53,378 nucleotides of DNA, taken from the NCBI GenBank assembly GCA_016180655.1, contig JACPAT010000027.1:1-53378 (forward strand), in the 5' to 3' direction. The position numbers and the translations under genes were made by a program. The stretch comes from Candidatus Methylomirabilota bacterium (GTDB taxonomy: Bacteria; Methylomirabilota; Methylomirabilia; Methylomirabilales; 2-02-FULL-66-22). This document shows, piece after piece, positions 3,781-53,320 of this stretch; position 1 is the first letter of the stretch; the number at the start of each line of letters is the position of its first letter. Below the pieces are notes generated by a model. That model saw nothing but the letters and a program-made list of their open reading frames with translations, did no database searches and had not been told where the DNA came from.

Positions 3781-3893
3781 GCCGTCAGCAGTCAGCGGTC
3801 AGCAAGCGGGGGCCAGGGATCAGGGGCCGGGGTTCGATCCTCCCCAACCCCTAGCCCCCAGCCCCTAATCCCCGGAATGGTGGCTGACGGCTG
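3781..3893. repeat. Nested tandem-heptamer hairpin. Outer arms are GCNGTCA units (3781-3803) against GCTGACGGC (3879-3893). Inner arms are G-tract heptamers (3808-3836) against C-tract heptamers (3842-3873).
   Basis: Units GCCGTCA GCAGTCA GCGGTCA, then GGGGCCA GGGATCA GGGGCCG GGGTTCG, mirrored by CCCCAAC CCCTAGC CCCCAGC CCCTAAT. Confidence 0.8.
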
Positions 3894-3901
3894 TGTGTGG
3901 C

Positions 3902-4699
3902 ATGTCGATTCCACCGGACCTCGACCCGGCCAAGATCCAGGCTGCCCTCCGATCACGACTGATCGGCCGCCCGCTGGAGGTGGTGGAAGAGATCGGCTCG
4001 ACCAACGATGCGGCCCTGGCGGCCGGCCGCTCCGGGGCGCCCGAGGGATTCGCCGTCCTGGCGAATCGGCAGACGGCCGGCCGGGGACGCCGGGGACGGG
4101 CGTGGGCGTCGCCGCCCGGGGTGGGCCTCTACACCTCGGTCCTGCTGCGACCCCTGCAGCCGCCGGGCTGGATCCCGCTTCTCACCCTGGTCGCAGGTCT
4201 CGCCGTGAGCGAGGCGATCCGGGAAGTCGCCGGGCTGGAGCCCCTGCTGAAGTGGCCCAACGACGTCCTGGTGCACGGGCGCAAGGTGGCCGGCATCCTC
4301 ACCGAGATGGCCAGCCTGGACGCCCGGGTGAGCTACCTCGCGGTGGGCATGGGGGTCAATGTGAACCACGGGGCGCCGGACCTGCCGGAGGATCTCCTCC
4401 CGGTCGCAACGTCCCTGCGCCTGGCGAGCGGCCGGACCATCCCACGGTGTGATCTGGCCGTGGCGCTGTACAACAGCATGGATCGGTGGTATCAGGTGTT
4501 CCGCCAGGGGCAGACCGGGACGATCCTGGCACACGGCCGGCAGCGAAGTGCGACCCTGGGGAAATCCGTGGACGTGCTCGCCGGGGAGGAGCGATGGCGA
4601 GGCCGGGCGGTGGACCTGGATGCCGACGGCGCCCTGCTGGTTCAGGAGGAGGGGGGCGCCGTCCGCCGGGTGCAGGCCGGCGACGTCTCTATCCGATAA
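3902..4699 (+). CDS. birA: Biotin--[acetyl-CoA-carboxylase] ligase, apparently without an N-terminal HTH domain
   Basis: GRGRRGRAW biotin-binding signature and KWPNDV motif. ATG 3902 (MSIPPDL); in-frame GTG 3893 is the alternative. Confidence 0.85.
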   Translation: MSIPPDLDPAKIQAALRSRLIGRPLEVVEEIGSTNDAALAAGRSGAPEGFAVLANRQTAGRGRRGRAWASPPGVGLYTSVLLRPLQPPGWIPLLTLVAGLAVSEAIREVAGLEPLLKWPNDVLVHGRKVAGILTEMASLDARVSYLAVGMGVNVNHGAPDLPEDLLPVATSLRLASGRTIPRCDLAVALYNSMDRWYQVFRQGQTGTILAHGRQRSATLGKSVDVLAGEERWRGRAVDLDADGALLVQEEGGAVRRVQAGDVSIR

Positions 4700-4705
4700 C
4701 ATGAA

Positions 4706-4781
4706 ACGGCATATGGCGTATGGCGTATCGCTGATGGTTCGGGCTCGACCATACGCCATAGGCCACGAGTCATACGCAGTC
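4706..4781. repeat. Tandem-heptamer hairpin, unit ATGGCGT against CGCCATA
   Basis: ACGGCAT ATGGCGT ATGGCGT ATCGCTG ATGGTTC, short spacer, then GACCATA CGCCATA GGCCACG AGTCATA. Several pairing registers are possible. Confidence 0.8.
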
Positions 4782-4846
4782 TTGGTTGCTTTCCCATGAT
4801 TCCCGGCTGGCACCCAGGCCCAAATCCGGCAAGGGGCGGATGACAG

Positions 4847-5611
4847 GTGTTACTGGCGCTGGACGTCGGCAACACGAACACGGTCATCGGCGTCTTCGAC
4901 GACAAGGCGCTCCTGACCCACTGGCGCCTGTCCACGCGGCGCGAGGGGACGCGCGACGAATACGCCATGCTCATCAGGGGCCTCTTCGACTTCGCCGGGC
5001 TGGCGTTCCAGGGGGTGTCGGCGGTCATCATCTCCTCGGTGGTTCCGCCGCTCCAGGGTCCCCTGGAGGAGATGGCCCGGCAGTACTTCGGGGTCGAGCC
5101 GATGGTCGTGGGCCCGGGGATCAAGACCGGCATGCCGATCCTGTACGAGTCCCCCAGGGACGTCGGGGCCGACCGGATCGTGAACGCCGTGGCGGCCTTC
5201 GAGGCCTACGGCGGGCCCTGCATCGTGGTGGATTTCGGGACGGCGACCACCTTCGACGCCATCTCGGTGCGGGGCGAGTACCTGGGCGGCGCGATCTGTC
5301 CGGGGATCGGGATCTCGTCCGAGGCGCTCTTCCAGCACGCGGCCAAGCTCCCGCGGGTGGATATCACCCGGCCCAAGGTCATCATCGGCAAGAACACGGT
5401 GGGCAGCATGCAGGCGGGGCTGTTCTTCGGGTACCTGAGCCTGGTGGAGGGGATCGTCGCCCGCATGCGGGCCGAATTGGGCGGTCGGGCCGCCGTGGTC
5501 GCCACGGGCGGCCTGGCAGAGCTCCTCCTCACCGAGTCCACGGCGGTGGATCACGTGGACCCCCTCCTCACCCTCACGGGCCTCCGCATCCTCTTCGAGC
5601 GCAACCAGTAG
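4847..5611 (+). CDS. coaX: Type III pantothenate kinase
   Basis: N-terminal LLALDVGNTNTVIGVF and ASKHA-fold motifs. GTG start. Confidence 0.9.
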   Translation: MLLALDVGNTNTVIGVFDDKALLTHWRLSTRREGTRDEYAMLIRGLFDFAGLAFQGVSAVIISSVVPPLQGPLEEMARQYFGVEPMVVGPGIKTGMPILYESPRDVGADRIVNAVAAFEAYGGPCIVVDFGTATTFDAISVRGEYLGGAICPGIGISSEALFQHAAKLPRVDITRPKVIIGKNTVGSMQAGLFFGYLSLVEGIVARMRAELGGRAAVVATGGLAELLLTESTAVDHVDPLLTLTGLRILFERNQ

Positions 5612-5646
5612 CCACCCCCGATTTCACTCTGTGGGTCCCGGCTTTT

Positions 5647-5681
5647 CCCCAACCCCCAACCCCTGACCCACGTCCCCCGTC
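5647..5681 (+). repeat. One-armed heptamer array CCCCAAC x2, CCCTGAC, CCACGTC, CCCCGTC (the C-tract strand; G-tracts lie on the minus strand)
   Basis: Five units in register between the convergent coaX and hydratase genes. The last unit overlaps the hydratase stop codon. Confidence 0.7.
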
Positions 5682-6447
5682 ATTTCCCCTTGGCGGCCTG
5701 CTCGGCACGGAAGGCGGCCATGGCAGCCTCGTGCTCCGGGGAGGTGAGACACGCCTGCTGGGCGGGGATGAAGGCTTGCATGAACTGGGTGAAGTCGGTC
5801 TGGAACGCCAGATTGGAGAGCCGCTTGATGTGGATCAGGCTGGTGTGGGGGACCGCCAGGAACCGTTCTGCCATGGCCAGGCAGCTGGCCTCCAGCTCCG
5901 CCCGGGGGACCACGGCGTTCACCAGGCCGATCTCCAGGGCGCGGCGCGCGCCGACCGTATCGCCGAGCAGGAGGAGTTCGCGGGCACGGCCCATCCCGAT
6001 GAGGCGGGGGAGCCGGTAGGTCCCCAGGCCGGGGATCAGGCACTCCTTGACGGCGGGCAGCCCCAGGATCGCGTCGTCCGCGGCGATCCGCAGGTCGCAG
6101 GCGAGGGCGATCTGCAGGCCACCGCCGAGACAATAGCCGTGGATGCCGCAGAGGACGGCCTTGTCGCAGTTCTCCAGGATGTCCCACAGGGACTCGATGT
6201 CCGTGAAGAAGACGGGGTCCAGGCGGCCGCTGGAGAGGGCCTTGAGGTCCACCCCGGCGCAGAAGGCGCGGCCCGTGCCGGTCAGGATGGCCACCCGAAC
6301 CTTCCGATCGTCCCGCAGGGTGTGGACCGCCTCGGTCAGGTCGGCCAGAAAGGTCATGTCCTCGGCGTTGAGGACCTCGGGCCGGTTCAGCGTGATGCGC
6401 GCGATAGGGCCCTCTCTGCGATACAGCACCGTCCGCTCCGTGGCCAT
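5680..6447 (-). CDS. Enoyl-CoA hydratase/isomerase (crotonase) family protein
   Basis: RITLNRPEVLNA, FCAGVDLK and GYCLGGGLQIALACD crotonase motifs. Start taken at MATERTV (6447). The longer ORF reaching 6558 would run over the rplM promoter. Confidence 0.85.
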   Translation of the reverse strand: MATERTVLYRREGPIARITLNRPEVLNAEDMTFLADLTEAVHTLRDDRKVRVAILTGTGRAFCAGVDLKALSSGRLDPVFFTDIESLWDILENCDKAVLCGIHGYCLGGGLQIALACDLRIAADDAILGLPAVKECLIPGLGTYRLPRLIGMGRARELLLLGDTVGARRALEIGLVNAVVPRAELEASCLAMAERFLAVPHTSLIHIKRLSNLAFQTDFTQFMQAFIPAQQACLTSPEHEAAMAAFRAEQAAKGK

Positions 6448-6551
6448 GCCTGTCCTCCCGTGTGGCGGCGTTGTGTGTGGGGCGCATTCAGGAAACCGGC
6501 GAGAGTCTACGGTACGGAACTCGGGTCTGTAAAGCCGATGGGACATTTCCC

Positions 6552-6580
6552 TTGACAAATCGGCGCTCTCTCCATATGTT
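6552..6580 (+). promoter_or_regulatory. Sigma70-type promoter for rplM-rpsI: TTGACA, 17 nt spacer, TATGTT
   Basis: -35 at 6552-6557 and -10 at 6575-6580, with a 17-nt spacer, ~60 nt upstream of the rplM ATG. Confidence 0.6.
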
Positions 6581-6639
6581 TACGCGGTTCCGGAGGGCAC
6601 ATTCGTCCCCCACCACTCTGCATGAGGACTCGTGACTTC

Positions 6640-7074
6640 ATGAAGACGTATCAACCCAAGGCGGGAGAGATCAACCGCGGCTGGGTCCTGGTGGACGCCC
6701 AGGGGCAGATCCTGGGGCGCCTGGCGTGCCGGGTGGCCATGCTCCTGCGCGGAAAAGGCAAGCCGGTCTTCGCCCCCCACCTGGATATCGGGGACTTCGT
6801 GGTCGTCATCAACGCCGAAAAGGTGGCGGTGACCGGCCGGAAGCTCCGCCAGAAGGAGTACTATCATCATTCCCAGTATCCCGGGGGCCTGAAGACCATC
6901 ACGCTGGAGAAACTGCTCCGGCAGAAGCCGGAGCGCGTTCTGGAGAAGGCGGTGCGGGGGATGCTCCCCAAGAACAAGTTGGGCGACGCCCTCTTCGGGA
7001 AACTCAAGGTCTACGCCGGCCCCACGCATCCCCATGTGTCGCAGCGGCCGGTGCCTCTGGCGGCCGCGACGTAG
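6640..7074 (+). CDS. rplM: 50S ribosomal protein L13
   Basis: [20 protein letters not shown]... is a typical L13 N-terminus. Confidence 0.95.
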
Positions 7075-7094
7075 CCCAAGGAGACGAGGCAGGC

Positions 7095-7490: not shown

Positions 7491-7510
7491 CCGTTTCGCC
7501 GTGACGGACG

Positions 7511-7541
7511 GGGAAGGGCCTCCGGGTTCTTCCCTTTTTTT
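7511..7541 (+). terminator. Canonical intrinsic terminator after rpsI
   Basis: GGGAAGGGCC-TCCG-GGGTTCTTCCC stem followed by a T7 run. Confidence 0.8.
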
Positions 7542-9960: not shown

Positions 9961-9980
9961 CGGCACAATGCGTTCGGGGC

Positions 9981-10022
9981 ACCCACGCCACAGCGGTGGG
10001 TATCCACCGCGGTGCCGTGGGT
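9981..10022. repeat. Hairpin built from CCAC/GTGG-containing ~7-nt units
   Basis: ACCCACG CCACAGCGGTGG gtat CCACCGCGGTGC CGTGGGT. The arms are complementary with two mismatches. Confidence 0.7.
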
Positions 10023-10027
10023 CCCGA

Positions 10028-10090
10028 CGGTTCGGGTGTTCGGGCGTTCAAGAACCACCGGACCACCGAACCCTCGAACGCCCGAACGCC
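10028..10090. repeat. Octamer hairpin of the GTTCGGNN / NNCCGAAC family
   Basis: GTTCGGGT GTTCGGGC GTTCA..., then GAACCACC GGACCACC GAACCCTC GAACGCCC GAACGCC. Confidence 0.8.
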
Positions 10091-10102
10091 CTTGGATAGA
10101 CC

Positions 10103-12111: not shown

Positions 12112-12170
12112 CACGGCAACCGGGCACTTAGCCCGCATAATTCACGAACGGACCTGTGAATTCTCCGGAT

Positions 12171-12324
12171 CCAATGACCAATGACCAATTTCCAATGACC
12201 AATGATGGTGGGCGCGCACAGCGCGCCGTCAAGGAGCATCACGGAGATACCATTCACGCTTGGTCATTCGTCATTGGGATTTGGTCATTCCCGCGATTAT
12301 TCGCGAACATGTTCGCGAATAATC
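12171..12324. repeat. Composite repeat element, copy A: CCAATGA x5, internal hairpin, TTGGTCA x4, then the 30-bp perfect palindrome GATTATTCGCGAACATGTTCGCGAATAATC
   Basis: Left arm 12171-12205, GGCGCGC-aca-GCGCGCC at 12210-12226, right arm 12260-12289, palindrome 12295-12324. Homologous to copy B at 19353-19481. Confidence 0.85.
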
Positions 12325-12359
12325 CGGGTTAGGCACTCAGGCAACCTGAGGTTCCTGAT

Positions 12360-12391
12360 TGCCGGACTGCCGGAGTGCCCGACTGCCAGAG
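12360..12391 (+). repeat. One-armed octamer array TGCCGGAC TGCCGGAG TGCCCGAC TGCCAGAG ending 6 nt before the pyrH ATG
   Basis: Four units in register, read directly. Confidence 0.7.
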
Positions 12392-16078: not shown

Positions 16079-16108
16079 CGACGTCACACAGGGACCAAGG
16101 GACAAAGA

Positions 16109-16195
16109 GCGTTCGGCTGTTCGAGCGTTCGGGCGTTCGATTGTTCCGGTTCGGAGAGAACGACCGAACCACCGAACTCCCGAACCACCGAACGC
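16109..16195. repeat. Octamer hairpin of the GTTCGNNN / CCGAACNN family
   Basis: GTTCG recurs at 16111, 16119, 16127 and 16135 (8-nt spacing). CGAAC recurs at 16165, 16173, 16181 and 16189. Confidence 0.8.
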
Positions 16196-16246
16196 GCTGC
16201 ACTCGGTGACTCTGTCACTAGGTCCCCGCATTTGAGGGAGGAAGAC

Positions 16247-17354
<1,108 letters not shown>

Positions 17355-17359: not shown

Positions 17360-17383
17360 GACAGCGACAGGGACAGGGACAGG
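17360..17383 (+). repeat. One-armed hexamer array GACAGC GACAGG GACAGG GACAGG inside a longer purine-rich tract
   Basis: Read directly, immediately after the prfB stop codon. Confidence 0.65.
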
Positions 17384-17454
17384 GCAACAGAGGGGAGCGG
17401 GAGGGGGAAGTCCCAGGCGTGGTGAGACCAGCCTGACGGATGAGGAGGTGCAGC

Positions 17455-17697: not shown

Positions 17698-17726
17698 CAC
17701 CCCCGGGCCACAGGCCCGGAAGGTGC

Positions 17727-17769
17727 GTTCGGTCGTTCGGTGGTTCGGCTCGGCGATTCCACCCGAACA
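17727..17769. repeat. GTTCGGNN octamer array (x3) with a short complementary CACCCGAAC arm, preceded by hairpin CCGGGCC-aca-GGCCCGG (17703-17719)
   Basis: GTTCGGTC GTTCGGTG GTTCGGCT ... CCACCCGAACA. Confidence 0.7.
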
Positions 17770-17784
17770 TCCGGAGGCTCTTCC

Positions 17785-17813
17785 TTGACTCCCCCCGGAG
17801 CGACCCCTATAAT
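17785..17813 (+). promoter_or_regulatory. Near-consensus sigma70 promoter for lysS: TTGACT, 17 nt spacer, TATAAT
   Basis: -35 at 17785-17790 and -10 at 17808-17813, ~45 nt upstream of the lysS GTG. Confidence 0.7.
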
Positions 17814-17857: not shown

Positions 17858-19366
17858 GTGGACGAGGCGAATGCCTTCATCCGCGAGCGCCTGAAGAAGC
17901 TGGAGGAGCTCAGTCGCGACGGCATTGATCCCTACCCCAGTACCTTTCCCATCACCCACCTGGCAGGCGACCTGACGGGCCGCTACGCCACCGCCGATGA
18001 GGCCGCGCTGGCGGCGGCCGGACCCGTGACCTTGGGCGGGCGGGTCCTGTCGCTGCGGGGGCACGGCAAGGCCTCCTTCGCCCACCTCAAGGACCAGACC
18101 GGCAAGATCCAGATCTACGTGCGCCAGGACGTGGTGGGCGAATCGGCCTACCACCTGTTCCGCCGCGTTGACGTCGGCGACTTCCTGGGGGTGCAAGGAC
18201 GACTCTTCCGGACCAAGACGGGCGAGCTGACGATCCAGGTCGAGCATCTCACCCTCCTGGCCAAATCGCTCCGCCCCCTGCCCGACAAGTGGCACGGCCT
18301 CAGCGACGTGGAGGTCCGCTACCGCCAGCGCTACGTGGACCTGATCGCCAATCCGACGGTGGCGGAGCTGTTCCGGCGGCGGGCGCACGTCATCGCCGAG
18401 ATCCGCCGCTTCTTCGATGCCCGCGGCTTTCTCGAGGTCGAGACGCCCATGATGCACCCCATCCCGGGGGGCGCCGCGGCCCGGCCCTTTGTCACCCACC
18501 ACAACGCCCTGGACCTCAGTCTCTACCTGCGCATCGCGCCGGAACTCCATCTCAAGCGGTGCGTGGTGGGCGGGCTGGAGCGGGTCTACGAGATCAACCG
18601 GAACTTCCGGAACGAGGGGCTGTCCACCCAGCACAACCCCGAGTTCACCATGCTGGAGTTCTACCAGGCCTACGCCGACTATCAGGACCTCATGGCCCTG
18701 ACGGAGGAGCTGCTGCCCCAGGTCGTCCGGACCGTCTGCGGCAGCGATACCATCACCTATCAGGGGCGCCAGATCTCCTTCGCGCCCCCGTGGCCGCGCC
18801 TGTCCCTGGAAGAGGCCCTGGTGAAGCTGGGAGGCCTCCGCCCCCAGGAGGTCCGGACCGAGGCGGGCCTGCGGACCGCCGCGGAGGCGAGCGGTGTTGC
18901 CGTCAAGCCGACCTGGGGGTGGGGCAAGCTCTTGGTCGAGCTCTTCGAGGCCCGGGTGGAGGAGCAGCTCGTCCAGCCCACCTTCGTCACCGACTTCCCC
19001 GCGGAGCTGTCGCCGCTGGCCAAGGCCCGGACGGACGATCCCCGCTACGCGCAGCGCTTCGAGCTGTACGTGGCCGGCCTGGAGGTCGCCAACGCCTACA
19101 CCGAGTTGAACGACCCCCGGGAGCAGCGGCGCCGGCTGGAGGCCCAGGCCAAGGCGCGGGCCGCCGGCGATGAGGAAGCCCACTGCATGGACGAGGACTT
19201 CCTGCGGGCGCTGGAATACGGGCTGCCGCCCACGGCCGGCGAGGGGATCGGGATCGACCGCCTGGTCATGCTGCTCACCGATTCCCCTTCGATCCGCGAC
19301 GTGATCCTGTTCCCGTTGCTCAGGCCGGAAGTCCGGGGTCCCGAGACTACGGACAATGACCAATGA
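17858..19366 (+). CDS. lysS: Lysine--tRNA ligase (class II)
   Basis: OB-fold anticodon-binding domain plus class II motifs. GGAGGA RBS before GTG 17858. The last codons and the stop lie inside the CCAATGA array. Confidence 0.93.
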
Positions 19367-19481
19367 CCAATGACCAATTCCCAATGCCAGTACACCCCGG
19401 CCCGTGGAGTATCTTCCCTGTCGGTCATTGGTCATTGGGATTTGGTCATTGCCCCCGGCTTTTCGCGAACGGGTTCGCGAA
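19353..19481. repeat. Composite repeat element, copy B: (A/C)CAATGA x5, spacer, TTGGTCA x4, TTCGCGAAC-GGG-TTCGCGAA
   Basis: Right arm 19421-19450 matches copy A at 28 of 30 positions, including the odd TTGGGAT unit. The TTCGCGAA dyad at 19462-19481 is also shared. Confidence 0.85.
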
Positions 19482-19507
19482 GAGCGGGGATAGGGGGTAG
19501 CGGTCGG

Positions 19508-20798: not shown

Positions 20799-20843
20799 GC
20801 GGATTGAAAAATCCGAAATCCGAAATCCCAAATCCGAAATTGC
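20799..20843. repeat. Short hairpin GCGGATT/AAATCCG followed by the heptamer array AAATCCG AAATCCG AAATCCC AAATCCG AAATTGC
   Basis: Array at 20809-20843 in register, ending 3 nt before the lolD ATG. Confidence 0.8.
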
Positions 20844-27347: not shown

Positions 27348-27351
27348 GGGG

Positions 27352-27519
27352 AGAGCGGAGAGCCGCGAGCCGAGAGCCGAGGGAAAGACACCGCGAGCCG
27401 AGAGGGAAGCGCCGAGCACCGAGCGCCGAGAGGCGAGGGAAAAGCACTGAGAGCCGAGAGCCGCGAGCCGCGAGCCGAGAGGGAAGCGCCGAGCGACGCG
27501 AGCGGAGAGCCGAGACGGA
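27352..27519 (+). repeat. One-armed array of 24 heptamers in unbroken register, consensus AGAGCCG (variants CGAGCCG, AGCGCCG, AGAGGGA)
   Basis: I parsed the tract unit by unit from 27352 to 27519 without any phase break. No local inverted partner. Confidence 0.85.
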
Positions 27520-28622: not shown

Positions 28623-28751
28623 CCAGGCTGATGAAAAAGGCCCATCTGCTGCGTCAGGCACTCGTCGCGGCACTGCGACGTACACACCAACGTACGCCTC
28701 GTGCCACGACTTCGGGCCTTCCTTGCATCTGGGCCTTTTTGACCAGCCTGG
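28623..28751. repeat. 129-bp element bounded by imperfect 27-bp terminal inverted repeats (CCAGGCTGATGAAAAAGGCCCATCTGC / GCATCTGGGCCTTTTTGACCAGCCTGG); MITE-like
   Basis: The arms are complementary with about 4 mismatches. The interior holds further small stems (GTCGC/GCGAC, CGTAC/GTACG). Starts immediately after the lpxD stop. Confidence 0.6.
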
Positions 28752-28752: not shown

Positions 28753-28782
28753 TTAGCAGGGGGCTGCAGAGCCCCCTGCTAA
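28753..28782. other. Perfect 13-bp stem-loop TTAGCAGGGGGCT-gcag-AGCCCCCTGCTAA between lpxD and fabZ
   Basis: Read directly. No T-tract. Lies ~20 nt upstream of the fabZ RBS. Confidence 0.7.
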
Positions 28783-28805
28783 GACGGCGGCGGAGGGAGC
28801 AGCGC

Positions 28806-30916: not shown

Positions 30917-31007
30917 ACGTTCGGCAGTTCGGGCGTTCGGGAGTTCGGTGGTTCACTCAGATCCGATGAACACCCGAACACCCGAACCATCGAACGCCCG
31001 AACGCTT
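30917..31007. repeat. Octamer hairpin: GTTCGGNN x5 against GAACNNCC x5
   Basis: GTTCGGCA GTTCGGGC GTTCGGGA GTTCGGTG GTTCACTC, 9-nt spacer, then GAACACCC GAACACCC GAACCATC GAACGCCC GAACGCTT. Confidence 0.85.
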
Positions 31008-31880: not shown

Positions 31881-31992
31881 GCATGGGTGGAATCGTGGAT
31901 CGGTGGATGGGTGGATTCGTGAGTGATGAACGCCGCAGGCCGATTTCCTGAACCACGGATTCACCAGTCCACGGATCCACGCATGCACGGGT
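31881..31992. repeat. Octamer hairpin: GTGGATNN x5 against CCACGNAT x4-5
   Basis: GTGGAATC GTGGATCG GTGGATGG GTGGATTC GTGAGTGA, spacer, then CCACGGAT TCACCAGT CCACGGAT CCACGCAT GCACGGGT. The right arm contains the lpxB ATG. Confidence 0.8.
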
Positions 31993-33831: not shown

Positions 33832-33916
33832 AAAACGTTCGGCGGTTCGGCAGTTCGGCAGTTCGGCGGTTCGGGAACACCCGAACACCCGAACGGTCGA
33901 ACAGCCGAACGTTTTC
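33832..33916. repeat. Near-loopless octamer hairpin: GTTCGGNN x5 against GAACNNCC x5, flanked by AAAAA and TTTT (bidirectional terminator-like)
   Basis: AAAAAC-GTTCGGCG GTTCGGCA GTTCGGCA GTTCGGCG GTTCGGGA/GAACACCC GAACACCC GAACGGTC GAACAGCC GAACG-TTTTCT. Confidence 0.85.
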
Positions 33917-33922
33917 TGGCGC

Positions 33923-35185: not shown

Positions 35186-36321
35186 GCCTGGGCGCCGCCC
35201 TCCGAAGCTACTCCCTGGGCGCGATGCAGGCGGGGCAGCCGACGGCGAGCCAGCGCGCCTGGCGGCTCGTGTTGACGGCCGCAGCGGCCGGATATCGCGC
35301 GGGCGTCGGCGTGCGCGCGTGGGCCTTCGCCTCGGGGCTGCGGGGCATCCGGCGCCTGCCCTGCCCGGTCATCTGCGTCGGCAACCTGACCGTGGGGGGA
35401 AGCGGGAAGACCCCGTGCACGATCGCCCTGGCGCGCTGGTTCCGCGCCCGGGGCCGGGCCGTCGGGATCCTGCTCCGCGGGTACGGAGGCCGGGAGTCCG
35501 GGGTAACAGTGGCAGCCGACGATCAGGGCGTTCGCGCCCGATGGGAATCGGTGGGTGACGAGGCCATCCTGCTGGCGCGGCGGCTGCCCGGCGTCCCGGT
35601 CGTCGTGGGCGCCGACCGCTTCCGGGCCGGCCAGGAGGCCCTGCGGCGGTTTCGACCGGATGTCCTGCTGCTCGACGATGGGTTTCAGCACCGGCAACTG
35701 CATCGCGACCTGGATCTCGTCATGGTGGATGCGACCGATCCGTTCGGCGGGGGGTGGCTCTTGCCGCGGGGACGGCTGCGGGAGCCCGTCGTGGGGCTTC
35801 GGCGCGCTCACGCGGTGATCCTGAGCCGGACGGATCAGGCCCCGGACCTCTCCAGTCTCCGGCGGTGCCTGGAGCAGATCGTTCCCGGCGCGCCGCAGAT
35901 CCTCACGCGCCATCGCCCATCCCGTCTGGCCGATCTGGGGGACGGCGCGGAACATCCGCTGGAATCGCTGGCGGGTCGCCGGGTCCTGGCGGTCTGCGGC
36001 ATCGCCAATCCCGGGGGGCTTCACCGGACGCTCACGGACCTCGGGGCGATGCTGGTCGGGACGGCGGTGTTTCCGGACCACCATCCCTATGGGCCAGCCG
36101 ATCTGCTCCGGGTGAATCGGATGGCCCGGGATGGATGCGCCGAGCTCGTCGTCACCACGGAGAAAGACGCGATCCGGATGCCGGCGCCGCAGGCGGTCCC
36201 GGACGAGGCCGGGACGCCGGGACGGCCGATGCTGGTGCTCCAGGTGGAGCTGGAGGTCACCGAGGGAGCGGAATCGCTCGACCGGCTGCTGATGGGTTGC
36301 GGGGGAGGGGGACGTGGCTGA
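35182..36321 (+). CDS. lpxK: Tetraacyldisaccharide 4'-kinase
   Basis: P-loop VGNLTVGGSGKTP. GTG 35182 overlaps the waaA stop (GTGA). The upstream part of the 34255 ORF is an alternative frame of waaA. Confidence 0.88.
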   Translation: MSLGAALRSYSLGAMQAGQPTASQRAWRLVLTAAAAGYRAGVGVRAWAFASGLRGIRRLPCPVICVGNLTVGGSGKTPCTIALARWFRARGRAVGILLRGYGGRESGVTVAADDQGVRARWESVGDEAILLARRLPGVPVVVGADRFRAGQEALRRFRPDVLLLDDGFQHRQLHRDLDLVMVDATDPFGGGWLLPRGRLREPVVGLRRAHAVILSRTDQAPDLSSLRRCLEQIVPGAPQILTRHRPSRLADLGDGAEHPLESLAGRRVLAVCGIANPGGLHRTLTDLGAMLVGTAVFPDHHPYGPADLLRVNRMARDGCAELVVTTEKDAIRMPAPQAVPDEAGTPGRPMLVLQVELEVTEGAESLDRLLMGCGGGGRG

Positions 36322-37297
36322 GCGATCCCGCTGGAGCCCGGCGGCACTCCTGGAATGGGGACTGGTCGTGTGTCTGGCCAGGACGTTCGCCTGGCTCCCG
36401 GAATCGGCGGCGTATGCCCTGGGGGTGGGGGCGGGCCGCCTGGCCTTCCGGCTGGACGGGAGACACCGCGCCATCACCGTGGAGAATCTCACCCGGGCCT
36501 TTCCGGGCAAGTTCTCCCCCCCAGAGGTCGAGGCGCTGGCCCGGACCGTGTTCGAGAACCTGGGACGGACGGCCGTGGATGTGGCGCGCTCGGACCGCCT
36601 GCTGCGCGGGTCGAGCCCGGAGGCCGTGCGTATTGACGGCCTGACCCGGCTGCAGGAGGCCCAGCGGCGCGGCAAGGGGGTCCTCCTGATCACGGCCCAC
36701 CTCGGTCCTTGGGAGCTTTTGCCAGTCATCATGGCCACTCGCCATGGGCCGGGCCATATGGTGGCCAGGCCTCTGGACAATCCCAGATTGGACGATCTGC
36801 TCACGGCCCTGCGGGAGCGGGGGGGAAACCGCGTGATCCGGAAGCGCGACGCGATCTTGGCGATCCTCCAGGCCCTCCGGCGGGGCGAGACGGTGGGGAT
36901 CATGATCGATCAGCACATCAGCGAGAAGGATGGGGTCGTCGTTCCCTTCTTCGGTCGCCCCGCCTCAACCGTTTTTGCGCCGGCCCTCCTCGCCTTGCGG
37001 TCGGGGGCGGCCGTCCTGCCCGCGGGCATCATCCGGGAGGGACGGGGGCGATACCGGGTCCGGGTCGCGGAAGAGGTGCCCGTGCGGCGGGGCGGAGACC
37101 TGAGGGCCGACCTGGTGGAGAACACGGCACGGTTCACGGCGGCCATCGAGGCGTTCATCCGGACGCATCCGGAACACTGGTTCTGGGTGCACCGGCGCTG
37201 GAAGACGCAGCTCCCGCTGGATCCGAAACTGGAAACTGGAAACTGGAAACTGGATGCGGACCCGGAACGTGTCGGAAGCGTCTCCGAGACAGGCTGA
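36314..37297 (+). CDS. lpxL: Lipid A biosynthesis (Kdo2-lipid IVA) late acyltransferase, LpxL/HtrB family
   Basis: HLGPWE (HX4E) motif and ...HPEHWFWVHRRWK near the end. The last ~25 aa (DPKLETGNWKLDADPERVGSVSETG) are read out of the GAAACTG array. Confidence 0.85.
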   Translation: MAERSRWSPAALLEWGLVVCLARTFAWLPESAAYALGVGAGRLAFRLDGRHRAITVENLTRAFPGKFSPPEVEALARTVFENLGRTAVDVARSDRLLRGSSPEAVRIDGLTRLQEAQRRGKGVLLITAHLGPWELLPVIMATRHGPGHMVARPLDNPRLDDLLTALRERGGNRVIRKRDAILAILQALRRGETVGIMIDQHISEKDGVVVPFFGRPASTVFAPALLALRSGAAVLPAGIIREGRGRYRVRVAEEVPVRRGGDLRADLVENTARFTAAIEAFIRTHPEHWFWVHRRWKTQLPLDPKLETGNWKLDADPERVGSVSETG

Positions 37298-37364
37298 GCT
37301 CCGCTCCCGAGCCCCAATTTCCAATATCCGATTTCCGATTTCCAGTTTCCGTTTTCCAATTCTC
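37225..37364. repeat. Heptamer hairpin: GAAACTG x4 (37225-37252) against NNTTTCC x7 (37316-37364)
   Basis: GAAACTG x4 then GATGCGG, ~56-nt spacer, then AATTTCC AATATCC GATTTCC GATTTCC AGTTTCC GTTTTCC AATTCTC. Confidence 0.85.
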
Positions 37365-39235: not shown

Positions 39236-39334
39236 CCACAGATGCACACAGATACACACAGATGGTGCAGTCGGAATGGTTCGGTGAATGAGAGGCCATT
39301 ATCCGTGTTCATCTGTGTTCATCTGTGGTTGCAT
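39236..39334. repeat. Decamer hairpin: CACAGATNNN x3 against ATCYGTGTTC x3
   Basis: CACAGAT at 39237, 39247 and 39257. ATCCGTG/ATCTGTG at 39301, 39311 and 39321. Confidence 0.8.
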
Positions 39335-46035: not shown

Positions 46036-46107
46036 CGGATTTTCGATTGTGGATTTCCGATTTGGGATTTGGAAATCCGCAATCCGCAATCCAAAATCCG
46101 CAATCGC
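46036..46107. repeat. Heptamer hairpin with a 2-nt loop: NGGATTT x5 against AAATCCG/CAATCCG x5
   Basis: CGGATTT TCGATTG TGGATTT CCGATTT GGGATTT-gg-AAATCCG CAATCCG CAATCCA AAATCCG CAATCGC. Confidence 0.85.
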
Positions 46108-47484: not shown

Positions 47485-48288
47485 ATGATCCGGCGATCGG
47501 CGGTGGCGGGATCGTTTTATGCCGGGACGCGGGACCGGTTGCGCCTTCAGGTGGAGGACCTCCTCCCCAGGGAGGTCACGCGGGAGCGGGCCATCGGGGT
47601 GGTGGCGCCCCATGCCGGCTACGTCTATTCGGGGCGGGTGGCGGCGGCCGTCTACTCGCGGGTGGAGCTTCCCGAGACCTTCGTGATCCTGGGGCCGAAC
47701 CACACCGGCCTGGGGGCCGGCGCGGCCATCATGACCTATGGGCAGTGGGAGACCCCCCTGGGTGCGGTCCGCATTGACGCCGACCTGGGGAAGGCGATCC
47801 TGGCCCACTCGTCCGTCCTGGAGGAGGATCACCTTGGCCACCTCCGCGAACACTCCATCGAGGTGCAGCTTCCGTTCCTGCAGTATTTCGAGCGACCATT
47901 CACGTTCGTTCCGATCTGCCTCTTCAGCCACGAGTACGCGGCGTGCCAGGACGTGGGGCAGGCGGTGGCGCAGGCGGTGCAGGAGGCAGGGAAGCGCGTG
48001 CTGCTCGTCGCCAGCACGGACATGAGCCACTACATCTCCCGCGAAGAGGCGACGCTGAAGGATCGCAAGGCCATTGACGCCATCCTGGCCCTGGATCCGG
48101 AGGGACTGCACAGGGTGGTTCGGAAGGAAGGGATCAGCATGTGCGGATTCCACCCGACCACGGCCATGCTGGTGGCAGCCAAGGCCCTGCGCGCCACGCA
48201 GGCGGACCTCGTGATGTACACGGATTCCGGGGAAGTCACCCGGGATCTCCAGGAGGTCGTGGCGTATGCCGGCCTGGTCATCCGGTAA
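47485..48288 (+). CDS. Memo-like protein (AmmeMemoRadiSam system protein B family)
   Basis: AVAGSFY, VAPHAGYVYSG and EHSIEVQLPFLQ motifs. Confidence 0.85.
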   Translation: MIRRSAVAGSFYAGTRDRLRLQVEDLLPREVTRERAIGVVAPHAGYVYSGRVAAAVYSRVELPETFVILGPNHTGLGAGAAIMTYGQWETPLGAVRIDADLGKAILAHSSVLEEDHLGHLREHSIEVQLPFLQYFERPFTFVPICLFSHEYAACQDVGQAVAQAVQEAGKRVLLVASTDMSHYISREEATLKDRKAIDAILALDPEGLHRVVRKEGISMCGFHPTTAMLVAAKALRATQADLVMYTDSGEVTRDLQEVVAYAGLVIR

Positions 48289-48291
48289 TTG

Positions 48292-48398
48292 TGGATTGAG
48301 GATTTCGGATTGACGATGTGGGATTTACGATTGTACAGTTACGACCTGACGCGAGCCACTGCCGGAATCTCAATCATCAATCATCAATCTGCAATCTG
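48292..48398. repeat. Heptamer hairpin: NNGGATT x6 against AATCNNC x5
   Basis: GTGGATT GAGGATT TCGGATT GACGATG TGGGATT TACGATT, spacer, then AATCTCA ATCATCA ATCATCA ATCTGCA ATCTGGA. Runs directly into the ferredoxin RBS. Confidence 0.8.
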
Positions 48399-48413
48399 GA
48401 GGAGGAGGGCAGG

Positions 48414-48755: not shown

Positions 48756-48816
48756 GCGGCCGTTCCGGCACTCTGCAGAGGCGCAGAGGAGCCGAGGAGC
48801 AGAGGGGAAGATCGGA

Positions 48817-48862
48817 GGCGCCCAGGCGTCCCGGAGGCGGGATGCTTGGGCGCCTCTTTTCT
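48817..48862 (+). terminator. Intrinsic terminator after the ferredoxin gene
   Basis: GGCGCCCAGGCGTCCCG-gagg-CGGGATGCTTGGGCGCC (17-bp stem with two G-U pairs), followed by TCTTTTCT. Confidence 0.8.
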
Positions 48863-49704: not shown

Positions 49705-49725
49705 GAATCCCTCCTTCGCCGATGT

Positions 49726-49795
49726 GAGATTTTCGATTGTCGATTTTCGATTTTGATCCAAATCGTCAATCACCAATCGTCAATCGAAGATCCGC
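49726..49795. repeat. Heptamer hairpin: TCGATTT x4 against AATCGNN x4
   Basis: GAGATTT TCGATTG TCGATTT TCGATTT TGATCCA / AATCGTC AATCACC AATCGTC AATCGAA. Confidence 0.8.
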
Positions 49796-49818: not shown

Positions 49819-49820
49819 CG

Positions 49821-50711: not shown

Positions 50712-51214
50712 CCGATGCCGGCGCCCCAGAGGGCTCCGGCCAGGACGTCCGCCGGATAGTGGACGCCCACGTACACCCGGGAATAGGCCACCCCGGCCGC
50801 CAGGAGGAAGAGGGCCCACCGCCAGCGGCGGAAGCCCAGCCATCCGACTGTGGCAACGGCGAACATGTTGCTGGCGTGGTTGGAGGGCCAGGAGAAGGAC
50901 CGGGTGCAGCCAACCAGCACATGGACGTCGGGGATCACGTGACACGGCCGGATGCGTTGGAGGCCAGCCTTGATCAGGTTGGCGCCCAGGTCGGAGAGGG
51001 CCACGGCCGCCACGGCCACCACCAGCAGGACCCACATCCGTCGCCCGCCCCGCCTCATCAACAGGAAGATCCCCACGGCCGCGGGCAGGATGGCGTAGCG
51101 CTTCGTGCTCAGGATCGGCATCAGGAGATCGAAGAGCGGATTCTGGAGAGTCCGGTTGATCAGCAGAAAACCCCAGGCATCCAGGGCTCGGAGACCCGAC
51201 AGGAGATCCAGCAT
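50627..51214 (-). CDS. PAP2 superfamily lipid phosphatase
   Basis: Motifs KAGLQRIRP, SWPSNH and SRVYVGVHYPADV. Six predicted TM segments. ATG 51214. Confidence 0.88.
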   Translation of the reverse strand: MLDLLSGLRALDAWGFLLINRTLQNPLFDLLMPILSTKRYAILPAAVGIFLLMRRGGRRMWVLLVVAVAAVALSDLGANLIKAGLQRIRPCHVIPDVHVLVGCTRSFSWPSNHASNMFAVATVGWLGFRRWRWALFLLAAGVAYSRVYVGVHYPADVLAGALWGAGIGWLAYSCVARAWPGWSNAGRGPDPSEAG

Positions 51215-51222
51215 CGTCCGGC

Positions 51223-52203
51223 TCAGGTGTCCACCCGCTTGGCGGAATGGGCGTTGACAAGGAAGGCCAGGCCGCCCAGGCTGCTGACGACCAGCGTCAG
51301 AGAGAACCAGGCCAGCGACATGGTGAGCGCCGTCGCCGCGTCCACACCGACCTTGGCGAAGAAGTAGACCGTGCCCCCCTCGCGGACGCCGAGGCCGGCC
51401 ACCGACACCGGCAGCATGGCCACGACCGTGATCAGCGGGACGTACAGGAAGAAGTAGGCGATGGGCACCCCCAGGTTGAGGCCGGCACCGATCAGGTAGT
51501 AGGCGACGATGATCAGGGCCTGGAGCACGGTCGAGAGGAGGAGGGCCTGCCACAGCGCCCAGTGATGTCCCCGATAGCGGTGGAGCGCATCCACCAGGCC
51601 CTGCAGCATGTCCTGGAACCGCCCCAGGCCCACGAGTCGCAAGAGACCCAAGGCGCGCCCTTTCACGCGATCATTGAGGAGCAGGGCGAGGGTCAGACCG
51701 AATGCCGCGGCCACGAGCAGGATCATGCTGGCGACCTGGGGGTCGCGGATCTCGCCGTAGGCCAGCCCCAGCGCCACCAGGGCAATCGCGATCAGCGCGG
51801 CGAAACCGGAGAGGCGATCCACCAGGATGGAGGCGATGGAGGCATCGTGGCCCCGGGTGATCTTGTAGATGGCGTAGCCCCGGACGATGTCCCCGCCGAT
51901 CAGCGTGGGCAGGAACAGGTTGAAGAAGGCCCCCTCGAAATAGACGAGGGTGAGGCGCCACAGGGGGAGGCGAATCCCCTCGGCCGCGAGCAGGCGTTGC
52001 CAGCGCACGGCGCTGATGACGTGGCCGAAAGCGTACAGGGCCAGGCACCCCAGGAACACCTTCAGGGGCAGCGCCTGGACGGTGCGGAAGAAGGTGGCGC
52101 GGTCCGCCCGCCAGAATAGAACGGCCAGGAGCAGGCCGCTGACGAAGAGTTTGCTCAGGAAGATGAGCCGCCCTTTGGCCCGCGGCGGCGCCTGGGGTTC
52201 CAT
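51223..52203 (-). CDS. UPF0104 / lysylphosphatidylglycerol-synthase-TM-region (flippase-like) membrane protein
   Basis: Polytopic protein with the RWQRLL and GGDIVRGY motifs typical of the family. ATGA overlap with the GT2 gene. Confidence 0.8.
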   Translation of the reverse strand: MEPQAPPRAKGRLIFLSKLFVSGLLLAVLFWRADRATFFRTVQALPLKVFLGCLALYAFGHVISAVRWQRLLAAEGIRLPLWRLTLVYFEGAFFNLFLPTLIGGDIVRGYAIYKITRGHDASIASILVDRLSGFAALIAIALVALGLAYGEIRDPQVASMILLVAAAFGLTLALLLNDRVKGRALGLLRLVGLGRFQDMLQGLVDALHRYRGHHWALWQALLLSTVLQALIIVAYYLIGAGLNLGVPIAYFFLYVPLITVVAMLPVSVAGLGVREGGTVYFFAKVGVDAATALTMSLAWFSLTLVVSSLGGLAFLVNAHSAKRVDT

Positions 52204-53174
52204 CAGGCCTCCCGGCCGGGGTGGCCCAGCACGCGCTTGACCATGTAGATCGGCTTGCGCTGGGACTCGTGGTACACCCGGACGAGCAGTTCGCCCAGGA
52301 GACCCATCACGATGAGCTGCACCCCGACGAGGATGAGCAGGATCGCGAGGAACAGGAGCGGGCGTCCCCCGATCTGGGCGCCGAACGCGAGCTTGAGCAC
52401 GCTGAGATAGCCGCCGATCGCGAATCCGACGCCGGCGGCACACACCCCCAGGAGGCCAAAGACCTGGATGGGTTTCGTGGCGAAGCTCAGCAGGAACTTG
52501 ACCGTGATGAGATCCAGGATGACCCGCAGCGTTCGGAAGATGCCGTACTTGGAGCGGCCGAAACGCCGCGCCCGATGGTGCGTCTCCACCTCGGTCAGGC
52601 TGATCCCCATCCAGCTGGCGATGGCCGGGATGAAGCGGTGCATCTCGCCGTACAGGCGGAGATGCTCGACGACCTCCCGCCGGTAGGCCTTGAGGGTGCA
52701 GCCGTAATCGTGCAGGCGGATGCCGGTGACCCGGGAGATGAGCCAGTTGGCCAGCATGGAGGGAAGCCGCCGGCTCAGGAACGGGTCTTGCCGTCTCCGC
52801 CGCCAGCCACTGACCACGTCGAAGTCCTTGGCCAGGGTGAGGAGCCGCGGAATGTCGGCCGGATCGTTCTGCAGATCCCCGTCCAGGGTGACGATCACGT
52901 CGCCCCGGGCGTGGTCGAACCCGGCGGACATGGCGGCCGTCTGGCCGAAGTTCCGCCGCAAGCCCACCAGCACCCAGCGGGGGTCCTGATCGCGCACCTT
53001 CTCCAGCCGGGTCCACGTTCCATCCGTGGACCCATCATCCACCGCGACGACCTCGTAGGCGATCCCGTGGGGGTCTAGGGCCTGACGGATCTCCCCGGCG
53101 AGGAGCGGGACGTTGTCTTCCTCGTTGAAGACGGGAATCACGATGGAGAGCGTCGGTCGGACGTCAGTCGCCAC
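52203..53174 (-). CDS. GT2 polyprenyl-phosphate glycosyltransferase (ArnC/GtrB/DPM1-like, with two C-terminal TM helices)
   Basis: LSIVIPVFNEE, DDGSTDGT and DGDLQNDP (DXD) motifs. GGGAGGA RBS before GTG 53174. Confidence 0.88.
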   Translation of the reverse strand: MATDVRPTLSIVIPVFNEEDNVPLLAGEIRQALDPHGIAYEVVAVDDGSTDGTWTRLEKVRDQDPRWVLVGLRRNFGQTAAMSAGFDHARGDVIVTLDGDLQNDPADIPRLLTLAKDFDVVSGWRRRRQDPFLSRRLPSMLANWLISRVTGIRLHDYGCTLKAYRREVVEHLRLYGEMHRFIPAIASWMGISLTEVETHHRARRFGRSKYGIFRTLRVILDLITVKFLLSFATKPIQVFGLLGVCAAGVGFAIGGYLSVLKLAFGAQIGGRPLLFLAILLILVGVQLIVMGLLGELLVRVYHESQRKPIYMVKRVLGHPGREA

Positions 53175-53209
53175 GGATCCTCCCAGGAGGAGCGGAACTC
53201 AAAGCAACC

Positions 53210-53320
53210 GCAGATGAACGCAAATGAAGGCAGAGGATTCTCTGTGGGGGTCCAAACCCAAAAACTGACAACCGACAACTGACAATCTGGCGATGATCCG
53301 TTGTCGGCTGTCCGTTTTTC
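53210..53320. repeat. Decamer array GCARATGAAS x3 followed by a heptamer hairpin (CTGACAA CCGACAA CTGACAA against TTGTCGG CTGTCCG)
   Basis: Read directly upstream of the GT2 operon. Confidence 0.7.

Follow-up and report, generated by a model that had tools for sequence, protein, structure and literature searches.

Phased short-unit repeats form families of two-arm hairpins between the genes of a Methylomirabilota genome

The contig JACPAT010000027.1 of assembly GCA_016180655.1, from a Candidatus Methylomirabilota bacterium, provides a 53,378-nucleotide (nt) stretch of DNA, hereafter the window, in which short-unit repeats are densely packed between the genes. The window has a GC content of 65-73%, and nearly all of its genes lie on the plus strand. 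The gene map was drawn from frame analysis of the GC content at third codon positions (GC3) and from the gene calls of metagenome-assembled genomes (MAGs) with their Pfam hits. It runs valS, birA-like, coaX, rplM-rpsI, argCJ, rpsB-tsf-pyrH-frr-cdsA-lnt, prfB, lolED and clpB, and continues with bamA-ompH-lpxD-fabZ-lpxA-lpxI-...-lpxB-...-kdtA-lpxK, a liv transporter and further genes; a tRNA scan of the window found none. About 40% of the intergenic DNA consists of elements in which a short unit is repeated head to tail and, in most cases, faces an array of its complement with which it can pair (Table 1). An earlier inspection of the letters alone, the sequence-only reading, had drawn attention to these arrays. 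We describe them here as families, each of which is a core of 4-7 nt repeated in phase, with a period of 6-10 nt, about four to five times over some 30-36 nt per arm, and with its complement on the other arm. Copies are gained, lost, nested in the loops of other elements and overwritten by elements of their own or a related family.

Exact-protein matches identified the groundwater MAGs GCA_016188905.1, GCA_016192625.1 and GCA_016179775.1 and the Logan runs SRR121134xx as 99.5-99.7% identical to the window, and the near-identical strain contigs L081 (99.6%), L084 (99.7%), L082 and L083 were used for comparison. More distant relatives were graded by the identity of their LpxB, namely L088 (96%) and L091 (81%), with L092 added as a 77% relative; LpxB homologues with 96-74% identity carry the names "candidate division NC10 bacterium", "Candidatus Methylomirabilota" and "Candidatus Methylomirabilis sp.". 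The host is accordingly taken as an uncultured member of Methylomirabilota, possibly of Rokubacteria type to judge by its GC content. A lineage census covered 307 kb of contigs from many metagenomes and is biased, its loci having been picked by the GTTCGG pattern described below. As a control set, 80 pyrH loci of other genomes were used, among which the best PyrH match is only 70% identical and there is no close relative.

Arrays were called with Tandem Repeats Finder (TRF) at a period of 6-10 nt and at least 2.8 copies, in gaps of at least 30 nt, and were compared with 200 dinucleotide-preserving shuffles of the same gaps. The window holds 30 such arrays in 20 of its 33 intergenic gaps, compared with a mean of 0.24 arrays and a maximum of three in the shuffles. 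The dense, phased two-arm arrays of the sequence-only reading are therefore real, and TRF recovered all the units it had listed where it had placed them. Strict pairs, with both arms called by TRF, number seven in the real gaps and none in the 200 shuffles. A more sensitive partner test, requiring a complementary stretch with a score of at least 12 within 150 nt of an array, found a partner near 15 of the 30 arrays, for which shuffled flanks give an expectation of 0.00. Folding of the gaps yielded about 16 two-arm hairpins, 12 of them with z <= -3.7 and matched by none or one of the 200 shuffles, so that both the shuffling and the folding that had been proposed as checks come out in favour of the arrays. 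The claim that the two arms always match needs correcting for about eight arrays, which have one arm or face no more than a weak or partial partner (those at 17360, 17726, 20809, 27351, 48775, 12360, 5647 and 3780). Nor do the arms carry equal numbers of copies, as had been supposed; they are similar only, with a left-right length correlation of r = 0.36 in 82 strict pairs (2.07 Mb, all loci compared). Median arm lengths are 31-36 nt; arrays of period 7 or 8 have about 4.5 copies (medians 4.4-4.6) and those of period 10 about three. A search of Rfam at a permissive E-value returned only chance hairpin matches to microRNA models, at 25-31 bits compared with gathering scores of 62-100.

Repeats of this kind might be produced by short-read metagenome assembly, and two or three loci do differ wholesale between near-identical assemblies, and MAG contigs break here. 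Against this, independent assemblies from different samples (NCBI MAGs, Logan) carry some 20 elements unchanged or with differences at single bases only, and in L082 and L083, which come from other samples, the elements agree base for base, with 0 mismatches within them. Furthermore, a 5.6-Mb contig and dozens of unrelated metagenome assemblies contain these families as well. The chance of an assembly artefact, a worry of the sequence-only reading, is practically nil.

The sequence-only reading had also assigned a different unit to each locus, which was overstated: the units group into families that recur throughout the lineage and have conserved cores and consensus ends. Within the window the 8-nt unit GTTCGGNN, which defines the GTTCGG family, occurs at five loci (10030, 16109, 17726, 30919, 33837), GATT/AATC-type units at four or five (20809, 46037, 48288, 49728) and CCAATGA units at two (12171, 19354). 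The lineage contigs contain 184 arrays, i.e., 0.6 per kb, and at least ten distinct core families; 27 of the 51 unit clusters are singletons, and the units shared across contigs are GTTCGG, GCAGAGGN, GAGAGCC, CCAATGA, AAATCCG, GAAACTG, GACAGG, ACGACAA and others.

The GTTCGG family gives the clearest view of this architecture. A metagenome scan for (GTTCGGNN)3 matched many contigs and provided 40 two-arm elements, the majority on contigs with a GC content of 62-70%. In these 40 elements the mode is four units per arm, the loops are often short (innermost core-to-core distance 6-104 nt, median 22) and the ends follow the consensus AARRGC/GTTCGG ... CCGAAC/GCYYTT. The cores (5-6 nt) pair in 92.6% of cases, with a further 4% as G·T, and the two-nt spacers pair in 31%, for which the expectation is 28% (P = 0.21), so that the stem consists of a run of 5-6 bp helices split by 2x2 internal loops. 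At core position 6, G or A on the left and C or T on the right vary uncompensated (G·T 31, A·C 20, A-T 1), and the flanks are 44% complementary compared with 41% for shuffled partners, i.e., complementary at the consensus level only. No compensatory covariation was thus found in the family, be it in the NN spacers, at core position 6 or in the flanks. Since conserved cores pair without covariation, it is the sequence that is conserved and not merely the structure, which reverses the earlier proposal that pairing was conserved and sequence was not. The arm spacers are not complementary, so the arms were not copied from one another.

A second family is built into a larger composite. The two CCAATGA copies of the window share the variant units CCAATTT and TTGGGAT and about 70 nt of right arm and flank, and an alignment with copies in two unrelated metagenome contigs delimits a composite of about 200 nt, outside of which the sequences are unrelated. 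It consists, in order, of a palindrome (CCCGSATAATTCACGA...), (CCAATGA)n, a loop with a GC-hairpin, (TCATTGG)n and a second palindrome (TTCGCGAAC..GTTCGCGAA...CCGGG), and the terminal palindromes start with CCCGSATAATTCRCGAAC. Copies at the two window loci and in L176, L167 and L088 have internal variant units in common, as well as the hairpin of the loop and the palindromes at the ends, and differ in their flanks. YTAG direct repeats enclose the first window copy (TTAG...TTAG) and that of L167 (CTAG...CTAG); they are not found at the L176 copy. Partial copies lie in other gaps of L088, one of them 3′ of bamA, where the window has none. The composite is like a miniature inverted-repeat transposable element (MITE) or a bacterial interspersed mosaic element (BIME).

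When the composite and a separate MITE of the window (described after Table 1) were compared with plasmids by BLAST, only single-arm CCAATGA arrays were found (Rhizobium, Serratia), and these are unannotated. Perfect (CCAATGA) x8 arrays lie at 380-437 of L213 (Rhizobium sp. N324 plasmid) and at 390-441 of L214 (Serratia fonticola plasmid), the latter just 5′ of, or overlapping, an annotated start codon. The CCAATGA heptamer thus recurs across phyla in a different, phase-variation-like context.

Comparison with close strains shows how the elements change. At 99.7% identity the mismatch rate is 0.29% for coding sequence, 0.39% for intergenic DNA outside the elements and 0.74% within them. The number of units is unchanged in about 20 arrays at this distance, which speaks against the slippage-prone expression switches that had been suggested. 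Two elements have had their interior wholly replaced, at 16108-16209 (in L081) and at 53232-53330 (in L084, by unrelated sequence). L081 is also without the 293 nt equivalent to window 4555-4847 (the birA-like 3′ end and the ATGGCGT hairpin), either through a real deletion or an assembly join.

In L088, nine of ten comparable gaps differ structurally. Syntenic gaps with different units, which had been proposed as a check, are seen here: 3′ of the GT9 glycosyltransferase gene both arms have CACAGATNNN in the window and CGCAAATNNN in L088, with the same outer flanks and a different loop, and 3′ of lpxI an 8-nt GTTCGG element in the window stands against a 7-nt TTCGAAN element in L088. Similarly, the gap 3′ of fabZ has a 141-nt two-arm 7-nt element in L088 and a short remnant in the window; the L088 extras after bamA and fabZ resemble replacements, not clean insertions. 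The (GAGAGCC)n gap is 98 nt shorter in L088 (3420-3570) than in the window. Nesting is seen in a GTTCGG hairpin within the loop of a GGGACNNN hairpin and in an AACTGAC hairpin within the loop of a 10-nt element. Further away, L091 has kept the GTTCGG elements 3′ of lpxI and of the DUF374 gene, with cores and flanks intact and spacers diverged, at a distance where ordinary intergenic DNA can no longer be aligned with the window. The DUF374-kdtA gap of L092 (11911-12290, 380 nt) is without the GTTCGG hairpin and is crowded with arrays of GGGGGAGA, GCAAAG-type, CTGACTT/CTGCC-type and CATAGGG units.

The position of the elements relative to genes is equally regular. They start about 0-14 nt past stop codons, often reach to within 30 nt of the start that follows, and many window elements occupy the whole intercistronic gap. 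On the lineage contigs, GTTCGG elements lie in 18 co-directional, two convergent and no divergent gaps, and the nearest stop codon is a median of about 10 nt away. The sequence-only reading was accurate in placing the elements after stop codons and inside the lpx operon, and the promoter and terminator gaps that it named as array-free are indeed without arrays. Some arms reach into genes. The longest lpxB open reading frame (ORF) begins at 31923; conservation of the N-terminus begins at the ATG at 31983, inside the last right-arm unit, and this is probably the start. The ORF of the lipid A acyltransferase (36314-37297) reads through four GAAACTG units, giving a repeat-encoded C-terminal tail. 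The single-arm purine-rich arrays offer few cases from which to judge orientation relative to genes.

This placement invites the alternative that the elements are RNA hairpins selected by the host to punctuate operons, as barriers to 3′-5′ exonucleases, as RNase III sites or as couplers of stop and start, and built by local slippage. Their proximity to stops and starts, with the lpxB start in a last unit, would be expected of such hairpins, as would very stable stems, the retention of position and cores at 81% identity and an arm length that clusters at about 30-36 nt whatever the period; the comparable arrays of Xanthomonas are transcribed (PMC4692102). However, the strand that would be transcribed bears no mark of selection. 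G·U pairs number 39 in the sense and 47 in the antisense orientation of the window elements, and 44 and 55 in the GTTCGG family, i.e., there is no sense excess in either set. The summed minimum free energy of the window elements is -683 kcal/mol in sense and -693 kcal/mol in antisense, and the antisense fold is the stabler in 15 of 21 co-directional GTTCGG elements. The missing covariation, with core sequence and not pairing conserved, and the dispensability of the elements, which are lost or replaced in the 96% relative, also count against it. Neither is there a U tract: a terminator scan of the window flagged no hairpin with a U tract among the periodic elements, and the T run after 33910 is itself paired. 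The terminator role that had been proposed is thus not supported, and a role as mRNA stabiliser, also proposed, is possible though without a sense-strand G·U signal. Taken together, we consider host-selected hairpins rather unlikely, if a serious contender.

The same architecture is found beyond this lineage, at lower overall density. The control loci contain on average 0.14 arrays per kb, compared with 0.66 in the window, and the two-arm form is obvious in two Acidobacteriota MAGs, one Pyrinomonadaceae MAG and one Chitinophagaceae MAG. Units there are often perfect and differ by locus (AGTGGAG, GGTCTTT, AAAAGTGA, CAGTTTT, AATGTGCA and others), and some hairpins have arms of very unequal length (4.8 vs 10.6 copies). 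These loci recall a purely mutational origin, in which slippage of 6-10 nt units on short inverted repeats makes the arrays and template switching keeps the arms complementary, with neither mobility nor function. Apparently locus-specific units would follow from it, as would arm lengths that vary semi-independently (the weak correlation and the unequal copies above) and the 98-nt (GAGAGCC)n difference between relatives. Of the long repeat units in bacteria, the heptamer is the most frequent, and Mrazek (2007), as relayed in PMC4679880, suggested polymerase slippage for the heptamer excess. However, slippage with random mutation predicts otherwise than what is found, as in this lineage variation is limited to the phased spacers and the cores are identical across units, loci and genomes. 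Consensus ends and composites common to unrelated loci, the constant unit number at 99.7% and arm spacers that are not complementary likewise disagree with a by-product of mutation, which we think improbable.

Repetitive extragenic palindromes (REPs) and BIMEs are extragenic, multi-copy, imperfect palindromes that lie at 3′ ends or inside operons as mosaics of modules, and their family sequence is conserved without covariation. They are kept at orthologous sites yet often gained and lost, and the gene for the cognate REP-associated tyrosine transposase (RAYT) is usually REP-flanked. The elements described here are also extragenic, multi-copy, imperfectly palindromic and mosaic, at 3′ ends and in operons; they differ in that their arms are phased arrays of 4-7 nt cores instead of one 20-40 nt palindrome, and in that the GTAG-type 5′ motif is missing from their ends. 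Like MITEs, they are non-coding, 80-200 nt long, have inverted ends and show presence/absence polymorphism at orthologous sites, but internally periodic arms and insertion into the loop of another element set them apart. They are also distinct from phase-variable simple sequence repeats, as they show no unit-number variation at 99.7% and lie 3′ of genes. Among cyanobacteria, the short tandemly repeated repetitive (STRR) sequences of heterocystous species are said to have been described by Mazel in 1990, reportedly with the units CCCCAGT, TTGGTCA and CAACAGT. The CCAATGA unit, when reverse-complemented and rotated, gives TTGGTCA, which we take to be STRR2. The window has TTGGTCA at 12260 and 19423; units of CCCCAGC/CCCCAAC lie at 3842 and 5647.

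The closest precedent lies in Xanthomonas. Rehm et al. (2015, PLoS One; PMC4692102) described intergenic arrays of the heptamer GGGAATC (GGGGAYT in Nostoc) with one variable position, in which four units are preferred and of which 70-75 convergent inverted pairs per genome might form stem-loops. These arrays lie between co-directional ORFs, within 50 bp of a stop codon, and are under-represented in divergent gaps; their position is conserved between close species while length and sequence vary (PMC4692102). They are transcribed, have no link to gene function and were read as G-quadruplex formers (PMC4692102). The elements of the window likewise have about four units, a core with variable positions, a place next to stops and none in divergent gaps. 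Unlike the Xanthomonas arrays, they fall into many families within a single genome and span periods of 6-10 nt, two arms are the rule and not a subset, and they are nested, have consensus ends and take part in composites, in another phylum. Furthermore, only the GGGGNNN element (3809-3874) has G tracts, and GTTCGG, GATT, CCAATGA, CACAGAT and GAAACTG have none. As most families are not G-rich, G-quadruplexes cannot explain the four-unit preference here, and they are probably not a general explanation, because the families that are not G-rich show the same four-unit, stop-adjacent pattern. The sequence-only reading could assign the elements to no described family; this agrees with the Rfam result and has to be qualified by the Xanthomonas inverted pairs. 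In the literature we found no description of multi-family two-arm phased hairpins, the paired form appearing only in the Xanthomonas report.

In the TAACTGA arrays studied by MacGregor (2015; PMC4679880), the repeats are almost always direct and 5′ of start codons, with one inverted case among 170 TAACTGA-type arrays in Maribeggiatoa, and binding by S1, Csp or CsrA was proposed. The AACTGAC and GAAACTG units resemble TAACTGA, and with the STRR sequences the elements share intergenic tandem heptamers; both of those systems are mainly single direct arrays, in taxa with a different GC content. By analogy, our elements could be phased binding arrays for an oligomeric protein that binds single-stranded RNA or DNA (cf. 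TRAP, HutP or cold-shock proteins) and competes with the hairpin as a switch, the second arm being phased only as the complement. Such a protein would explain conserved cores, free unpaired spacers and a preferred unit number, and the MacGregor proposal (PMC4679880) is of this kind. On the other hand, at least ten core families would need many cognate proteins, periods span 6-10 nt, the window has no candidate gene and there is no strand asymmetry, which makes binding arrays very unlikely. CRISPR arrays were ruled out by the lack of unique spacers between repeats, iterons and other arrays for double-stranded DNA binding by periods of 6-10 nt that misfit the helical repeat, and DNA-uptake or Chi-like motifs by too many different units in one genome.

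We put the chances at about even that the elements are REP-, BIME- or MITE-like dispersed hairpin repeats with phased-core arms, tolerated inside operons. New copies would insert at TA-containing sites and into exposed hairpin loops; in a genome of 68% GC, TA-containing sites are mostly stop codons. A trans-acting enzyme recognising the phased cores would carry out the insertion, after which the arms may grow and shrink by slippage and ectopic exchange between copies may homogenise them. Tolerance in operons would come from the compact hairpin formed by the transcript, which has no U tract; such a hairpin would neither terminate transcription nor expose unstructured RNA and would bring the stop near the next start. 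Host benefit, in the form of 3′-end protection or translational coupling, would be secondary.

Several observations weigh against dispersal by such an enzyme. No RAYT or transposase gene lies in the window, and tblastn searches of the lineage contigs for RAYT and IS200/IS605 (IS608) TnpA, with approximate queries, gave only an unrelated match on a low-GC contig. The suggestion in the sequence-only reading that the arrays are substrates of a hairpin-recognising enzyme is compatible with the existence of families and with elements nested in loops, but these searches, a weak test with such queries, turned up no gene for it. No target-site duplication is evident at GTTCGG elements, and the direct repeats that resemble one rest on two full copies of the CCAATGA family. 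The intact GTTCGG cores at 81% suggest host-level constraint or frequent conversion, not simple selfish turnover, and the presence of the same architecture in Acidobacteriota and Bacteroidota could reflect a general mutational process instead. Given this core retention and cross-phylum recurrence, a host RNA function and general slippage stay live rivals to dispersed hairpin repeats.

Extrapolated from the density of the window, the copy number in a 5-6 Mb genome would be of the order of a thousand or more, and the architecture spans several phyla dominant in soil and groundwater; it is a robust, abundant and under-described feature. Defining the class would make the over-representation of heptamers and the role of STRR testable questions. 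It would also point to a mobilising or binding factor, and would improve the annotation of gene starts and operons in MAGs, because the arms overlap stops and starts and break assemblies. A bolder and improbable reading is that of a distinct class across phyla (Methylomirabilota, Acidobacteriota, Bacteroidota, Xanthomonas), in which each core family has its own cognate reader, a multimeric enzyme or regulator that binds single strands. If true, this could be either a new REP/RAYT-like mobilisation, with arrays built and overwritten one unit at a time, or a post-transcriptional code for the punctuation of operons, and the heptamer excess of bacteria would largely be the footprint of such hairpins.

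Table 1. Repeat elements of the window, and long two-arm hairpins near pyrH in Acidobacteriota, Pyrinomonadaceae and Chitinophagaceae control loci (strand as recorded; z, fold score against shuffles).
Sequence	Position	Strand	Element	z	Context and remarks
Window	3780-3804	.	Single array (AGCAGTC) x3.6		Directly 3′ of valS stop; TRF
Window	3809-3874	.	Two-arm 7-nt, GGGGNNN x~4 then NNNCCCC x~4 (CCCCAGC/CCCCAAC)	-1.1	Weak fold; ends 2 nt 5′ of birA-like start codon
Window	4708-4765	.	Two-arm 7-nt, (ATGGCGT) x3 + ACGCCAT-type right arm	-4.9	Partner score 13 vs shuffle maximum 8
Window	5647-5679	.	Single-arm 7-nt (CCCCAAC/CCCNNAC)		Convergent gap coaX / enoyl-CoA hydratase; TRF
Window	9977-10025	.	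Non-periodic palindrome GGCACCCACGCC...GGCGTGGGTCC		Dispersed element, directly 3′ of GCGTTCGG unit
Window	10030-10091	.	GTTCGGNN family, two arms, 8-nt period, ~3 left + 4-5 right units	-4.4	
Window	12132-12328	.	Composite CCAATGA element, ~200 nt	-4.3	TTAG at 12128-12131 and 12329-12332; terminal palindrome 1 12139-12166; (CCAATGA) x5 12171-12205; loop hairpin 12212-12229; TTGGTCA-type right arm 12260-12289; terminal palindrome 2 (TTCGCGAAC..GTTCGCGAA) 12290-12328
Window	12360-12391	.	Single-arm 8-nt (TGCCGGAS) x3.5-4		Just 5′ of pyrH start (12398); TRF
Window	16086-16225	.	Nested element, 8-nt units	-4.8	Outer GGGACNNN (16086-16107) pairs NNNGTCCC (16204-16225)
Window	16109-16140 and 16158-16193	.	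Complete GTTCGGNN hairpin		In loop of 16086-16225 element
Window	17360-17384	.	Single-arm 6-nt (GACAGG) x4.2		3′ of prfB stop; TRF; partner test: none
Window	17726-17775	.	GTTCGGNN family, left arm x3, right arm cut to 1-2 units	-2.3	
Window	19354-19485	.	Second CCAATGA element copy	-4.5	Left arm 19354-19386, provides TGA stop of upstream gene; right arm 19423-19451; TTCGCGAAC palindrome 19462-19485
Window	20800-20840	.	(AAATCCG) x4.6, one-unit left partner (GGATTGA), effectively single-armed		Between lolE and lolD
Window	27351-27515	.	Purine-rich single-arm (GAGAGCC)n, ~24 units, 56-nt higher-order period		165 nt; 3′ of ompH stop, before lpxD; without complementary arm; unit found in 6 lineage contigs
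Window	30919-31003	.	GTTCGGNN family, 5 + 5 units	-6.2	Between lpxI and GFO-type oxidoreductase
Window	31886-31990	.	Two-arm 8-nt, GTGGATNN x4 then CCACGGAT-type x4-5	-4.2	Right arm 31953-31990
Window	33832-33917	.	GTTCGGNN family, 5 + 5 units, no spacer, flanks GAAAAAC...GTTTTC	-7.1	Fills DUF374-kdtA gap: begins 1 nt past stop, ends 6 nt before start
Window	37225-37361	.	Two-arm 7-nt, (GAAACTG) x4.3 + (CCRRTTT) x7	-4.7	Left arm within 3′ end of lipid A acyltransferase ORF; right arm past stop (37297)
Window	39237-39327	.	Two-arm 10-nt, CACAGATNNN x3 + complement x3	-4.6	
Window	46037-46105	.	GATT-type 7-nt, (GATTNNN) x5 then (AATCNNN) x5, no spacer	-3.7	
Window	48288-48398	.	GATT-type 7-nt, degenerate, 6-7 left + 5 right units	-1.3	Begins at Memo-like gene stop
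Window	48775-48805	.	Single-arm 8-nt (GCAGAGGA) x3.9		Directly 5′ of canonical terminator 48814-48857
Window	49728-49786	.	GATT-type 7-nt, (GATTTTC) x3.9 then (AATCGTC) x3.7	-2.3	Between two minus-strand genes
Window	53209-53330	.	Nested element, outer 10-nt GCARATGAAS x2.4, right remnant TTCATTGC	-3.8	
Window	Loop of 53209-53330	.	Inner 7-nt hairpin, (AACTGAC) x3.3 then GTTGTCG-type		
L043	150-250, 4140-4270, 7690-7785, 9890-10000, 11300-11475		Hairpins		Near pyrH
L052	7780-7900, 9845-9975, 10700-10790		Hairpins		Near pyrH
L044	2140-2290		Hairpin		Near pyrH
L069	13365-13635		Hairpin		Near pyrH

Other inverted sequences accompany the periodic elements. A classical MITE lies at 28623-28751, directly 3′ of the TAA stop of lpxD, with terminal inverted repeats CCAGGCTGATGAAAAAGGCCCATCTGC...GCATCTGGGCCTTTTTGACCAGCCTGG. 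It is missing from the same gap in L088, L091 and L092, and copies with the same ends lie 3′ of TAG or TAA in L092 (18545, 20549), L169, L121 and L182. It is followed by a second perfect palindrome, TTAGCAGGGGGCTGCAGAGCCCCCTGCTAAG (28753-28783). The palindrome GGCACCCACGCC...GGCGTGGGTGCC occurs twice, in the window (9977-10025) and in L088 (9868-9920), each time directly after a GCGTTCGG unit, and the L088 copy replaces the inner units of the GTTCGG hairpin 3′ of the DUF374 gene. This suggests an insertion targeted to the GCGTTCGG/GTTCGG array.

Among the conventional signals of the window, canonical terminators with a hairpin and T run lie at 7510-7535, after rpsI, and at 48814-48857, after a ferredoxin gene. 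A sigma-70-like promoter matching at 11 of 12 positions is located at 17785-17813, 5′ of a 502-aa gene and just 3′ of a GTTCGG element. In prfB the canonical site of programmed +1 frameshifting, CTT TGA C, lies at 16311-16317, 22 codons past the ATG of the gene (16247). Directly 5′ of rpsB, the segment 10165-10259 gave a sub-threshold match to the Rfam rpsB leader (28.8 bits compared with a gathering score of 40), and could plausibly be a genuine ribosomal-protein leader from a phylum that is divergent.

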